Positions 10,243 to 56,326 are shown, numbered from the stretch's first letter. The stretch: DNA of 64,000 nt from Escherichia coli (GCF_017348835.2 NZ_CP071375.1); one strand, 5' to 3'. Program-made: numbers and translations. The notes: generated by a model from the sequence alone, not told the origin.

Positions 10243-11445
10243 TTACCTGAACTGATAATGACCTTCGCCCAATCGGATAACCCTTCCCTCTTCTTCTGCG
10301 CGGTTCAGCCACACACTAATTTGTTCGATGGTTAAACCAGTACAAGACGCCAGCCTTTCAATACTTATCGATTCCTTTGCAAGGATCGCCAGTTCCGCCA
10401 CAAAGAGTTGATAAAAATCGACAGGCGTATACGCGGGCATTACTGCGTAATTTGCGTCATCTTCATGCAGCGAAAACAGTTCTGGTTGAGCGTTACGGAG
10501 TGCTCTGTCATACATCAGCCCAGGAACGTCTGGCAGTCTGATCGTCACATTCTCAGCCTGTTCAGCACTCCATGACGCCCCATTTTCTACTAATCGTGAA
10601 TTGGCTGATTGCATATCCTGATTTGGTTTAACCTGCACAGGCAGCCACTGATGTTTTAATGCCTCCATCGCCCCGGTTATCGTTCCACCGGTCATTCCCG
10701 CACGTACAACCATTGCGCTTTCAGCAAGGCAATAAATATATTTATTTCGCGCCATCGCATTGCCGACGGTGAAACGTACCTCTGGGTAAAACGGCGAAAT
10801 CAACACCAGGTTGCCTGCTATAAGCCCTTCACGCCATTTCACTAACGTACTCGTTTTTAACAAGCTATCAGCTAATACGCCAACGGCAGTTCCCCCGGCC
10901 TCCAGTGCCGACGCCATTGCACATTCATCAATACCTCGCGCACCACCAGAGATAACGCAAATCCCCTGTTGGGCCAGTTTCGCGGCCAGTTGTTGGGTAT
11001 AGCGCAAATCGTCAGTCGGAGCATCTCGCGAGCCAACAATCGCCATACCTTCCGCTTGCAGTAATGCTTTATTCCCGCAGCCAAATAAAACGGGAGGTGC
11101 ATCCGTTCGCAATCGGTTTTTCAAGCGAACGGGATAATCGGCATCTCCGCGGGTTAAGATCCATAAACCGGCGCGTTGCCACTTATCTACCGCCAACGCC
11201 AGACTATGACCGCGCGCCAGCAAGCCAAGAATACGCTCCTGAGAAATACGCGGATCGCTCCAGCCTGTAAGTTTATCTTGCGGTTGCGGCACCAGAAGCT
11301 CGGCGGGACTGATACGTTGGTGCTTCAGCCATAATGCAAACTTCCCCCATTCACTATTACTAAGAGGTTTATACTCACTCGCCGCCGCGCGAGAAAAATC
11401 GCTGGTTAGCAGGAGAGTTGCTTGTGCATTGGCTGAAAGATTCAT
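10243..11445 (-). CDS. DprA/Smf-like protein (SAM-like N-term, Rossmann DprA core with GGARGID motif, C-terminal winged-helix-like tail); partner of helicase-PRTase gene
   Basis: Track ORF 10243..11538; start set to ATG 11445..11443 (MNLSANAQATLLL...), which overlaps the upstream gene stop as TGATG; motif VISGGARGIDECAMASALEAGG typical of DprA Rossmann domain. Confidence 0.75.
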   Translation of the reverse strand: MNLSANAQATLLLTSDFSRAAASEYKPLSNSEWGKFALWLKHQRISPAELLVPQPQDKLTGWSDPRISQERILGLLARGHSLALAVDKWQRAGLWILTRGDADYPVRLKNRLRTDAPPVLFGCGNKALLQAEGMAIVGSRDAPTDDLRYTQQLAAKLAQQGICVISGGARGIDECAMASALEAGGTAVGVLADSLLKTSTLVKWREGLIAGNLVLISPFYPEVRFTVGNAMARNKYIYCLAESAMVVRAGMTGGTITGAMEALKHQWLPVQVKPNQDMQSANSRLVENGASWSAEQAENVTIRLPDVPGLMYDRALRNAQPELFSLHEDDANYAVMPAYTPVDFYQLFVAELAILAKESISIERLASCTGLTIEQISVWLNRAEEEGRVIRLGEGHYQFR

Positions 11446-49496: not shown

Positions 49497-50084
49497 ATGT
49501 ATCGGATAGTTCTGGGGAAAGTTTCGACCTTAAGCGCAGCTCCACTGCCACCGGGTTTACGCGAGCAAGCACCGCAAGGTCCACGACGCGAACGCTGGCT
49601 GGCGGGGCGTGCATTGCTTTCGCACACGCTTTCCCCGCTACCGGAGATCATCTATGGCGAACAAGGCAAACCGGCATTCGCGCCGGAAACGCCGCTATGG
49701 TTCAACTTAAGCCATAGCGGTGACGATATCGCCCTGCTGTTGAGCGATGAAGGCGAAGTCGGCTGCGATATCGAAGTGATTCGCCCGCGCGCCAACTGGC
49801 GCTGGCTGGCGAACGCCGTATTCAGCCTCGGGGAACACGCTGAGATGGACGCCGTGCATCCTGATCAGCAACTGGAAATGTTCTGGCGCATCTGGACGCG
49901 CAAAGAAGCCATCGTTAAACAACGTGGCGGCAGCGCCTGGCAAATCGTCAGCGTAGACAGCACCTATCACTCCTCGCTGTCAGTCAGCCATTGTCAGCTA
50001 GAAAATTTAAGTCTGGCGATCTGCACCCCCACCCCCTTTACGCTCACCGCCGACAGTGTGCAATGGATCGATTCAGTTAACTGA
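49497..50084 (+). CDS. acpT: 4'-phosphopantetheinyl transferase AcpT
   Basis: 195 aa MYRIVLGKVSTLSAAPLPPGLREQAPQGPRRERWLAGRALL... Confidence 0.9.
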   Translation: MYRIVLGKVSTLSAAPLPPGLREQAPQGPRRERWLAGRALLSHTLSPLPEIIYGEQGKPAFAPETPLWFNLSHSGDDIALLLSDEGEVGCDIEVIRPRANWRWLANAVFSLGEHAEMDAVHPDQQLEMFWRIWTRKEAIVKQRGGSAWQIVSVDSTYHSSLSVSHCQLENLSLAICTPTPFTLTADSVQWIDSVN

Positions 50085-50129
50085 TCCGCCCACCCGACTG
50101 CCCATCTATTGATCCAGAACAGGTAATCA

Positions 50130-50157
50130 GTATGACGAATACTTAAAATCGTCATAC
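50130..50157 (+). promoter_or_regulatory. NikR operator (GTATGA-N16-TCATAC) in nikA promoter
   Basis: Exact match to the NikR dyad GTATGA-N16-TCATAC, 38 bp upstream of the nikA start. Confidence 0.85.
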
Positions 50158-50194
50158 TTATTTTCGCCATCTATTTTAATCCATTGGGGTTACC

Positions 50195-51769
50195 ATGCTC
50201 TCCACACTCCGCCGCACTCTATTTGCGCTGCTGGCTTGTGCGTCTTTTATCGTCCATGCCGCTGCACCAGATGAAATCACCACCGCCTGGCCGGTGAATG
50301 TCGGGCCACTAAACCCGCACCTTTACACGCCTAACCAGATGTTCGCCCAGAGCATGGTTTATGAACCATTGGTGAAATATCAGGCAGACGGTTCGGTGAT
50401 CCCGTGGCTGGCAAAAAGCTGGACTCATTCAGAAGATGGCAAAACCTGGACCTTCACCCTGCGTGATGACGTGAAATTCTCCAACGGTGAACCGTTCGAT
50501 GCCGAGGCGGCGGCAGAAAACTTCCGCGCAGTACTCGATAACCGTCAACGTCACGCCTGGCTGGAGCTGGCAAACCAGATTGTTGATGTTAAAGCACTCA
50601 GTAAAACAGAGCTGCAAATTACCCTGAAAAGCGCCTACTATCCTTTCCTGCAAGAACTGGCCCTGCCCCGTCCTTTCCGTTTTATCGCTCCCTCGCAGTT
50701 TAAAAACCATGAAACCATGAACGGAATTAAAGCGCCGATTGGCACCGGACCGTGGATTTTGCAGGAATCGAAACTGAATCAGTACGATGTCTTCGTCCGT
50801 AACGAAAACTACTGGGGCGAAAAGCCAGCGATTAAAAAGATCACCTTTAACGTCATCCCGGACCCGACTACCCGCGCGGTGGCGTTTGAAACTGGCGATA
50901 TCGACCTGCTGTACGGAAACGAAGGGTTATTACCGCTCGATACCTTCGCCCGCTTTAGCCAGAATCCGGCTTACCACACCCAACTGTCACAGCCGATCGA
51001 AACCGTGATGCTGGCGCTCAATACCGCCAAAGCCCCCACCAACGAGCTGGCAGTACGTGAAGCTCTTAATTACGCGGTGAACAAAAAATCGCTGATTGAT
51101 AACGCGTTGTATGGCACCCAGCAGGTCGCCGACACCCTGTTTGCCCCTTCTGTGCCCTACGCCAACCTCGGTCTGAAACCGCGCCAGTACGATCCGCAGA
51201 AAGCGAAAGCGTTGCTGGAAAAAGCCGGTTGGACGCTGCCTGCGGGCAAAGACATCCGCGAGAAAAATGGTCAGCCGCTGCGCATTGAACTGTCGTTCAT
51301 CGGCACCGATGCGTTAAGCAAATCGATGGCGGAAATCATTCAGGCTGATATGCGCCAGATTGGCGCAGATGTCTCGCTGATTGGCGAAGAAGAGAGCAGT
51401 ATCTATGCTCGTCAGCGCGACGGTCGTTTTGGCATGATTTTCCACCGCACCTGGGGCGCGCCATACGATCCACACGCCTTCCTGAGTTCAATGCGCGTAC
51501 CGTCGCACGCTGACTTCCAGGCACAGCAAGGATTAGCCGACAAGCCGCTGATTGATAAAGAGATCGGCGAAGTGCTGGCGACCCATGACGAAACGCAACG
51601 TCAGGCGCTGTATCGCGACATTCTGACCCGTCTGCATGACGAGGCGGTTTATCTGCCTATCAGTTACATCTCAATGATGGTGGTATCAAAACCGGAGCTG
51701 GGTAACATCCCCTACGCGCCGATCGCCACCGAAATTCCGTTCGAACAGATTAAACCGGTGAAACCTTAA
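50195..51769 (+). CDS. nikA: Nickel ABC transporter periplasmic binding protein NikA
   Basis: 524 aa with signal peptide [25 protein letters not shown]. Confidence 0.95.
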
Positions 51770-52709
51770 TGTTGCGTTACGTATTACGCCGCTTTCTGCT
51801 GCTGATCCCGATGGTGCTCGCCGCCTCGGTGATCATTTTTCTGATGCTGCGCCTCGGCACCGGCGACCCGGCGCTCGATTATCTGCGTCTGTCTAACCTG
51901 CCGCCGACGCCGGAGATGCTGGCCTCTACCCGCACCATGCTCGGGCTGGATCAGCCGCTGTACGTCCAGTACGGTACCTGGTTGTGGAAGGCGCTGCATC
52001 TTGACTTTGGTATCTCATTCGCCAGCCAACGCCCGGTGCTGGACGATATGCTGAACTTCCTGCCCGCCACGCTGGAACTTGCAGGTGCCGCGCTGGTATT
52101 AATTCTGCTCACTTCCGTGCCGCTCGGTATCTGGGCGGCGCGCCATCGCGACCGTCTGCCGGATTTCGCCGTACGTTTCATCGCGTTTCTTGGCGTGTCG
52201 ATGCCTAACTTCTGGCTGGCGTTTTTACTGGTGATGGCGTTTTCGGTATATCTGCAATGGCTACCCGCGATGGGCTACGGCGGCTGGCAGCACATCATTT
52301 TGCCTGCGGTTTCCATTGCCTTTATGTCGCTGGCGATTAACGCGCGGCTGCTGCGCGCCAGTATGCTGGACGTCGCCGGTCAGCGTCACGTCACCTGGGC
52401 GCGGCTACGCGGCCTGAATGACAAACAGACCGAGCGTCGCCATATTCTGCGTAATGCCTCGCTGCCGATGATCACCGCCGTGGGGATGCACATTGGCGAA
52501 CTGATTGGCGGGACGATGATTATCGAAAACATCTTTGCCTGGCCTGGCGTCGGGCGCTATGCGGTGTCGGCGATTTTTAACCGTGACTATCCGGTGATCC
52601 AGTGCTTTACGCTGATGATGGTGGTGGTTTTTGTAGTCTGTAATTTGATTGTCGATTTGCTCAACGCCGCGCTGGACCCGCGCATTCGTCGTCATGAAGG
52701 AGCGCACGC

Positions 52710-52713
<4 letters not shown>
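51769..52713 (+). CDS. nikB: Nickel ABC transporter permease NikB
   Basis: 314 aa permease ORF. Confidence 0.95.
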
Positions 52714-55517
<2,804 letters not shown>

Positions 55518-55534
55518 GTTATTTCTAAAACGAG

Positions 55535-55582
55535 GAAAGAAAAGATATTAACTGAACTTAATTTATAAAATTAAGTTCAGTT
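55535..55582 (-). terminator. AT-rich perfect hairpin (15-bp stem aactgaacttaattt / aaattaagttcagtt) with U-tract, 3' of hicB-like gene
   Basis: Perfect 15-bp inverted repeat with 3-nt loop at 55550..55582; minus-strand RNA continues AAUAUCUUUUCUUUC. Confidence 0.5.
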
Positions 55583-55636
55583 GCATAGATAGATCCTGTA
55601 AAGGCAGATATTCTGCGTAATGTACGCCGCTATAAG

Positions 55637-55996
55637 TTATAAATGATTCAAACGCTCATTCAGTGTTTCAATAATATAGGTATTAACAGAGACTTGTTGC
55701 TGCGCAGCCGCATTATTAAGGCGTTCACTCAGCGATTCTGGATAACGTAACGTAAAGGTTTTAATCTTTTCTGTACGCGCATACGGCTCAATACCCGCAG
55801 CTTTACAATCCTCAAGATACTCTCGCAGGGAAAGCTCTCCTTCTTTTTGCAGCCCCTGAATACTGTCAGAGACAAAATCACAATAACCTGACAAGCCCAG
55901 GAATTTGCCACGAAATGCATTCAGTTCTGGCACGTAAGTGATAACTGCAGGTTGCCCGGCAATCTCCATAGAGTTTGGCGTCTTCAGTTTGATCAT
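55637..55996 (-). CDS. hicB: HicB-like antitoxin (RNase-H-like N-domain + C-terminal ribbon-helix-helix)
   Basis: 119 aa; C-terminus KTFTLRYPESLSERLNNAAAQQQVSVNTYIIETLNERL is a CopG/RHH DNA-binding motif; start overlaps upstream hicA-like stop (ATGA). Confidence 0.7.
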   Translation of the reverse strand: MIKLKTPNSMEIAGQPAVITYVPELNAFRGKFLGLSGYCDFVSDSIQGLQKEGELSLREYLEDCKAAGIEPYARTEKIKTFTLRYPESLSERLNNAAAQQQVSVNTYIIETLNERLNHL

Positions 55997-56268
55997 GGTT
56001 TTACCCCTATACTTAGTAACCAGTCACGCACGCTTTCTACAGCGCCTTTATCGGTATCTGGCGACGGATGAGGCCGATGGAAACACGCAACGCTCATATT
56101 TAGTATGAACTTACAACGCGAACCTCTTCCTTCCTTAATTTCTCCGCCTAACGCTTTAACCAGAGATTCTATATCAGTCCATTTGATTCCTTGAGGTAAA
56201 GGTGATTTAAATAGCTGATCCAGTGTGTTTTTTTGTTTCTTTCGTAAAGCCTGTACCTGTGTTTACAT
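55993..56268 (-). pseudogene. hicA: HicA-like mRNA-interferase toxin reading frame interrupted by TAA at codon 2
   Basis: Frame reads ATG-TAA-TQVQALRKKQKNTLDQLFKSPLPQGIKWTDIESLVKALGGEIKEGRGSRCKFILNMSVACFHRPHPSPDTDKGAVESVRDWLLSIGVKP-TGA; TTGACT/TAAAGT promoter-like elements and AGGGA SD precede the ATG; only in-frame ATG downstream is 34 codons from the end. Confidence 0.5.
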
Positions 56269-56326
56269 GGCATTCCCTTATGACTTCACTTTATGACATC
56301 ACAGTATGAAGTCAAGTTTCCCTTCC

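Follow-up and report, generated by a model that had tools for sequence, protein, structure and literature searches.

What occupies the gap between nikR and yhhJ in Escherichia coli, and does the toxin–antitoxin pair that lies there in one genome still encode a toxin? The DNA analyzed here, referred to as the window, is a stretch of 64,000 nucleotides from E. coli (NZ_CP071375.1). A first-pass annotation of the window had described the gap as about 800 bp long and filled by a small hicAB-like toxin–antitoxin insert and an AT-rich perfect 15-bp hairpin, had placed a large Rhs element (rhsB-yhhH-yhhI) at the same position in K-12, and had suggested that the junction is a variable hotspot that holds different conflict cargo in different lineages.

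The junction in the window

The two flanking genes are convergent (3′–3′), and the interval between them, 55518–56326, measures exactly 809 bp, which bears out the estimated length. On its minus strand this interval carries hicA and hicB, and it also contains the hairpin. The features, in coordinates of the window, are as follows.

55116–55517, plus strand: nikR, the left conserved flank (ORF and PGAP annotation)
55518–55625: AT-rich spacer of 108 bp, 28.7% GC (sequence comparison)
55550–55582, minus strand: perfect inverted repeat, arms 55550–55564 and 55568–55582, 15 nt, 100% complementary, 3-nt loop (repeat search)
55637–55996, minus strand: hicB, 119 aa, intact (Pfam HicB, PF05534, 2e-15, 56.8 bits against a cut-off of 21)
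55993–56268, minus strand: hicA frame (Pfam HicA_toxin, 36.6 bits against a cut-off of 27)
55993–56223, minus strand: the RefSeq/PGAP call for HicA, WP_042014162.1, 76 aa from a CTG start (PGAP annotation)
56279–56317: three tandem 13-bp units TATGAMNTCA-NNN (starts 56279, 56292 and 56305), a putative HicB operator
56288–56315, minus strand: predicted sigma-70-like hicAB promoter, −35 TTGACT, 16-nt spacer, −10 TAAAGT (consensus scan 9/12, a pattern match only)
56327–57451, minus strand: yhhJ, the right conserved flank (ORF and PGAP annotation)

The start of yhhJ is ambiguous: the mechanical ORF list begins the gene with the GTG at 57535, which gives 402 aa and an overlap with the end of rbbA, and PGAP places it at 57451 (374 aa).

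The assignment of the pair to the HicAB family was confirmed by Pfam, with both proteins above the cut-offs (HicA matches PF07927 with an E value of 4.9e-9), and by the agreement of the PGAP gene names. HicA also matches PHROG 8887, annotated as “toxin,” at 7.4e-27, and HicB matches the HicB-like PHROG 9151 at 6e-13. Strain PE164 is 100% identical over the interval, and RefSeq/PGAP there names both genes as hicA/hicB family. The ATG of hicB overlaps the TGA of hicA (ATGA, 55996–55993), a layout that is the same in all relatives examined. Several database entries, for example that of E. coli HH97, label this HicA “hexulose-6-phosphate synthase,” which is a propagated misannotation.

The C-terminal region of HicB resembles Arc-type ribbon-helix-helix repressors. 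It matches Pfam Arc at 0.0077 (16.5 bits, below the cut-off of 20.4), a PHROG Arc-like repressor at 1.3e-6, and the Arc repressor structure 1b28 with an E value of 0.27; these matches agree, each of them being weak. A phmmer search of HicB against the PDB matched no HicB structure and returned just marginal Arc and unrelated matches.

Upstream of hicA, the window's allele has three of the putative operator units and is short of one 14-bp unit, as other alleles have four. The outer TATGAMNTCA units form a palindrome (TGACTTCA/TGAAGTCA); Citrobacter sedlakii and Enterobacter retain a corresponding inverted repeat of 22 nt. The predicted hicAB promoter overlaps these repeats. A NikR operator in the hicA promoter was considered and rejected, as the TATGA half-sites are all direct repeats at 13–14-bp spacing and do not form a GTATGA-N16-TCATAC palindrome.

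At the other end of the operon, the fold of the 108-bp spacer beats all 200 shuffles (z = −4.1). The hairpin that it contains was described correctly at first pass, its arms being complementary at 15 of 15 positions around a 3-nt loop, and it forms in the minimum-free-energy folds of both strands. Its stem is followed on the minus strand by AATATCTTTTCTTTCC, and the site passes a terminator scan; given this tail, the hairpin likely serves as the intrinsic terminator for hicAB. With no Rfam match in the interval at E ≤ 1, the idea that the spacer or hairpin holds a small RNA or riboswitch was discarded.

The codon-2 stop of hicA and the HicA fold

The hicA frame begins with an ATG (56268–56266) that has AAGGGA upstream and is followed directly by a TAA (56265–56263), after which the frame is open to the TGA at 55995–55993. 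On the minus strand the start reads AAGGGAATGCC-ATG-TAA-ACA-CAG-GTA-CAG. Other E. coli alleles read ATG AGA ACC AAG or ATG AGA ACA CAG and give a product of 91 aa (WP_001259385 and relatives), and the nikR-adjacent orthologues in C. sedlakii, a Klebsiella MAG, and Enterobacter sp. JUb54 encode the full N terminus. Homologues in the wider HicA family have 84–91 aa, with T15, L16, and F20 invariant or nearly so. As the TAA directly follows an ATG with a well-placed ribosome-binding site, the window's hicA allele, judged from its reading frame, cannot give the full-length toxin. Thus the toxin–antitoxin insert proposed at first pass stands as a pair of genes, but its toxin gene is not intact.

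A 108-bp probe spanning the codon-2 stop and the loss of the promoter repeat detected the TAA allele in 792 of 5,426 genomes, with an identity of 99% or more in almost every case. Neither the window nor these 792 genomes has an intact translatable hicA ORF; the sole ORF is the one of 76 aa from the CTG. It is conceivable that the module is active in this strain too, either through the 76-aa HicA started at the CTG at 56223 or through re-initiation after the ATG-TAA mini-ORF, since the whole Pfam domain is kept (residues 15–65 of the 76-aa product) and PGAP labels WP_042014162.1 a HicA family toxin and not a pseudogene. Also consistent with an active toxin are the near invariance of the TAA allele over the 792 genomes and the nature of the changes outside codon 2, which relative to other hicA alleles are mostly synonymous or conservative. 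However, the CTG, preceded by AAACAAAAAAACACA-CTG, has no Shine–Dalgarno sequence upstream, whereas a good ribosome-binding site serves the ATG-TAA. In addition, the 76-aa product lacks the conserved residues RKKQKNT together with the first N-terminal helix, both of which are present in all relatives of 84–91 aa, and PGAP start calls of this type are model-driven and are no proof of translation. We therefore regard an active toxin in this strain as very unlikely. Judged by its sequence, the locus in the window has most likely lost its toxin and still makes HicB, which would serve as an orphan antitoxin and autorepressor, and the 76-aa RefSeq “HicA” found in ~800 genomes probably stands for a toxin inactivated by its codon-2 stop. 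Whichever of the two hicA alleles a genome carries, its HicB (WP_000593555.1) is the same.

Two further observations concern variation within hicA. At 56100–56160, the window differs from strain C10 by five clustered synonymous changes in the GRGSR codons (GGAAGAGGTTCGCGT versus GGTAGGGGGTCGCGC), and in this cluster it matches the O157-type allele, not the common form of the TAA allele. The window thus combines parts of two hicA alleles, and this mosaic structure would explain why only 3 genomes reach 99% identity over the 809 bp. In E. coli 13E0780, the hicA start region (locus positions 2252–2362) has a 39-bp insertion in which a 13-bp unit holding the hicA start codon (AGAACATGCCATG) is repeated three more times in tandem. 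With this insertion, the deletion of an operator unit, and the codon-2 stop, the 5′ end of hicA looks prone to small changes that affect expression.

An AlphaFold2 model of HicA, built on 73 homologues, has a pLDDT of 95 and predicts two N-terminal helices, themselves confidently modeled, followed by an α-β-β-β-α core (helix 30–39, strands 43–46, 51–56, and 59–64, and helix 74–86), that is, a dsRBD-like fold. The top domain-sized Foldseek matches include the HicA structures 6g26, 6hpb, and 4c26, with target-normalized TM scores of 0.52–0.64, rmsd values of 2.7–3.2, and weak E values (0.5–2 over the top matches, 0.8–2 for the HicA structures); dsRBD proteins are also among them. By phmmer, HicA has no match in the PDB at E ≤ 1.

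Characterized HicA toxins rely on a His that closely follows a conserved Gly-Ser where strand 2 begins (Ec His23, Bps His24, and Yp His28; PMC11594946). In the alignment of the present subfamily, G49 is invariant, S50 is conserved in at least 90% of sequences, R51 is invariant, and the next residue is variable; no His is found there. Two other histidines of the same alignment, H64 and H67 in FHRPHP, are invariant or nearly so, and could stand in for the missing catalytic His. The subfamily was aligned to K-12 HicA with MAFFT only, as an hhalign comparison of the family with K-12 HicA gave a spurious 13-column match and was discarded. Membership in HicA rests on the HMM and the fold, and one defining catalytic feature, the His, is lacking. 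That the intact alleles have RNase activity is an assumption by analogy with the family, given that an invariant Arg replaces the catalytic His. A literature search found no experimental work on this “GSR” HicA subfamily in terms of growth arrest, RNA cleavage, or expression.

Like the characterized HicAB systems (K-12 hicA b4532/hicB b1438 and those of Burkholderia pseudomallei, Yersinia pestis (HicA3B3), Streptococcus pneumoniae, and Sinorhizobium meliloti), the pair is a toxin-first bicistronic operon with a small HicA that is predicted to have the dsRBD-like α-β3-α fold and with a promoter overlapped by repeats. In its C-terminal DNA-binding domain, HicB appears to resemble the Bps, Yp, and Stp HicB proteins, which have a ribbon-helix-helix (PMC11594946), and to differ from K-12 HicB, which uses a helix-turn-helix domain. 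The pair differs from the characterized systems in that it occupies a separate locus and belongs to a distant subfamily, from which phmmer reaches no HicA in the PDB at the threshold given above. The HicA of this subfamily has the extra two-helix N-terminal extension, with 91 aa in place of ~58–66, and an invariant Arg instead of the His of the G-S-(x)-H motif; the window's hicA differs further in its stop at codon 2.

States of the junction and origin of the insert

Junction-specific probes were used to count the states of the junction in 5,426 complete E. coli genomes.

nikR, the 108-bp spacer and hicB (the layout of the window): 1,490 genomes
nikR and Rhs: 2,117 genomes
nikR and a GntR/PTS/FGGY kinase/HPr/aldolase sugar island: 1,635 genomes
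Empty, with nikR and yhhJ 8–9 bp apart (junction read directly): 166 genomes

These four states total 5,408 genomes, and ~18 of the 5,426 are in other states, which were only Rhs variants in the genomes sampled. The exact layout of the window is present in 27% of genomes, so this hicAB sequence is not what normally parts nikR from yhhJ. The Rhs element expected in K-12 was confirmed, as MG1655 reads nikR-rhsB-yhhH-yrhC-yhhI-yhhJ. With conserved flanks, several cargos, and an empty allele in the population, the junction has the features of a hotspot, and the suggested comparison of synteny across E. coli shows it to be a multi-state site; the notion that it holds different conflict cargo in different lineages is right only in part, because the PTS sugar island is a non-conflict cargo.

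The hicBA pair is present in 2,071–2,073 genomes and is always single-copy, chromosomal, and at this locus in E. coli. As only 1,490 genomes are in the hicBA-only state, the PTS island and hicBA occur together in ~580 genomes, for example in O157:H7 and O103:H2. Thus hicBA is a separate right-hand module and not an alternative to the left-hand cargo: the left module is the AT-rich spacer, the PTS island, or Rhs, and the right module is hicBA or a REP spacer. In the remaining PTS-island genomes (such as SCU-115) and in the Rhs genomes, a ~90-bp REP-like spacer adjoins yhhJ. The breakpoints of all states are exactly the stop codons of nikR and yhhJ. The cargos of all alternative states begin right after the nikR stop, with the window, K-12, and O157 diverging at the stop codon, and the right-hand modules abut the yhhJ stop.

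The nikR/yhhJ junction is rhs locus 9 among the 11 places at which Jackson et al. (2009, PMC2935791) list Rhs elements in E. coli, and it is the site of the K-12 rhsB element. Rhs genomes, which make up 2,117 of the 5,426, are without hicBA and have the REP-like spacer beside yhhJ, whereas the window's junction has only hicBA and no Rhs sequence, whether core gene, toxin tip, immunity gene, or H-repeat/ISAs1. Rare forms such as that of BS-04 are an exception. There, a truncated ISAs1 is joined to a 49-bp remnant of the hicA promoter, and Rhs-associated rearrangements have therefore deleted hicBA at least once. The Rhs state itself varies: in E. coli 28Eco12, 405, NR3736, and Ecol_545, the main Rhs core is followed by different toxin tips, several orphan immunity genes (NTF2-fold, DUF6258, Sel1, and HEAT), and fragments of IS1, IS630, and ISAs1.

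Candidate second copies of the coding region on plasmids or phages in E. coli were all rejected. Matches of 100% to “plasmids” are mislabeled chromosomes, including ones of 4.8 Mb, and an 82% match to a Klebsiella “plasmid” is a chromosomal nik-hicB region. The K. pneumoniae “plasmid” pC17KP0052-1 (CP052389.1) has chromosomal content (prlC, uspA, pitA, the nik operon, and arnBC), with only hicB annotated beside nikR. In the phage collection, no E. coli phage carries the pair.

The polarity of these states was assessed from a limited outgroup set of one genome per species, found with NikR as the query and classified by tblastn. In most Citrobacter species, in Salmonella enterica subsp. diarizonae, and in one divergent “E. 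coli,” nikR abuts yhhJ with spacers of ~8–110 bp and 0–3 REPs. The PTS island is found without hicBA in E. whittamii, another Escherichia, and one C. amalonaticus. In C. sedlakii, hicBA lies between nikR and yhhJ as in E. coli, with 81–86% aa identity, and in Klebsiella and Enterobacter sp. JUb54 nikR-hicBA is followed by mgtE-yhiN-pitA, with no yhhJ. The empty sites in E. coli (8-bp spacer) and in Citrobacter and diarizonae, together with a GC content of 41% in the insert versus 54–57% in the flanks, support the reading of hicBA as an insert, acquired long ago into what would originally have been an empty gap. An older nikR-hicBA linkage with many losses could also account for this distribution, given the linkage to nikR in several genera, Klebsiella and Enterobacter without yhhJ among them.

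In C. sedlakii NBRC 105722 (locus positions 10426–11245), hicBA lies between direct repeats that are 763 bp apart and 93% identical over a 57-nt window, with a GC-rich, REP-like identical core of ~50 nt; no such repeats flank the E. coli copy. They look like the scar of an integration by recombination at a REP, or like a REP duplication.

These repeats bear on another reading of the spacer, in which the 108 bp and the hairpin would not be a terminator but would be what is left, or the recombination site, of the element that brought in hicBA, or else would mark where the alternative cargos enter. The spacer is the most AT-rich piece of the junction and in E. coli occurs in the hicBA-only state alone, being absent from the PTS + hicBA state as well as from the hicBA loci of Citrobacter, Klebsiella, and Enterobacter; in PTS + hicBA genomes the island takes exactly the position of the spacer, and the C. 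sedlakii cassette indicates that insertion scars occur at such loci. Against this, no second 108-bp copy is found anywhere in E. coli genomes, no direct repeats flank the insert in the window, no integrase or transposase ORF lies between nikR and yhhJ, and no tRNA is found within 50000–62000. A stem with a T-rich tail on the hicAB strand is most simply read as a terminator, and we consider the other reading, remnant or entry site, distinctly improbable. A terminator is the reading that we retain.

The closest relatives outside the nikR-linked loci point to phages. HicA relatives of 76–79% identity lie between gene A (replication) and the portal gene in P2-like prophages of C. koseri, Serratia proteamaculans, and Trabulsiella odontotermitis, an interval that is the variable cargo region of P2-like phages. 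Next to these prophage copies are an Exo_endo_phos nuclease, DNA methylases, and small ORFs without known function. The prophage pairs belong to the same subfamily as the E. coli pair and have the same organization, a 91-aa HicA followed by a 119–121-aa HicB with overlapping genes. They move with the prophage, whereas the E. coli copy is single, sits at a fixed site between core genes, and has no phage genes nearby. Both HicA and HicB fall into PHROG “moron” families, and relatives are also present in Burkholderia and Ralstonia phages. Given the prophage relatives and the moron families, phages are a plausible vehicle of hicBA.

The same data could be taken further: the pair, stemming from the cargo of P2-like prophages, would serve primarily in phage defense (abortive infection) or as an anti-addiction module, and its chromosomal copy or surviving HicB would guard against incoming phages or elements with a related HicA. 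The prophage and phage relatives and the moron families are consistent with this idea, as is the conservation of HicB at 100% even where hicA is knocked out. However, neither protein matches the PADLOC defense models at E ≤ 0.01, the E. coli locus lacks neighboring phage genes, and a 2024 review of HicAB states that an anti-phage role of HicAB needs confirmation (PMC11594946); we consider such a function rather unlikely. A more specific proposal is that the “GSR” HicA, with no canonical His, a two-helix N terminus, and a place in P2-like prophage cargo, is a mechanistically distinct toxin for phage–host or phage–phage conflict. Under this proposal, the nikR-linked chromosomal copies of E. coli, Klebsiella, Enterobacter, and C. 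sedlakii would be domesticated; in ~15% of E. coli the toxin would have been silenced, and HicB would have been kept to give immunity to relatives on prophages or to counter addiction by them. This proposal is speculative, and we give it little chance of being correct.

A proposed account of the locus

We consider it highly probable that the interval is an old, horizontally acquired, and chromosomally fixed hicA-hicB type II operon in a convergent nikR-yhhJ gap that holds lineage-specific alternative cargo, with its toxin most likely dead and its HicB still made. Transcription of hicAB would start on the minus strand from the sigma-70-like promoter embedded in the TATGAMNTCA repeats, which would be the operator for the ribbon-helix-helix C terminus of HicB. 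The hicA frame would be read first, its stop overlapping the start of hicB, and the transcript would likely end at the 15-bp hairpin and its U-rich tail. In strains with an intact allele, by analogy with the family, the 91-aa HicA would arrest growth unless bound by HicB. As for the variability of the junction, insertions between two convergent gene ends would be harmless, REP sequences and Rhs/ISAs1 elements may promote rearrangement, and the conserved flanks would let whole alleles swap by homologous recombination.

In kind, this is already known as ordinary accessory-genome variation, since the junction has been published as rhs locus 9 and hicAB is annotated in >2,000 RefSeq genomes. Besides unrelated works, only the 2009 Rhs paper was found in the literature on this specific pair or junction. 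The present additions are modest: a table of junction states in 5,426 genomes that includes the rare empty site, a codon-2 nonsense allele that is masked in RefSeq, a non-canonical active-site motif, and the relatives in P2-like prophages. They have little significance beyond bookkeeping, together with a caution on the RefSeq 76-aa “HicA” in ~800 genomes. The HicAB subfamily, which is uncharacterized, departs from the canonical active-site motif, and is closely related to pairs in the cargo of P2-like prophages, is a reasonable small target for toxin–antitoxin and anti-phage study.
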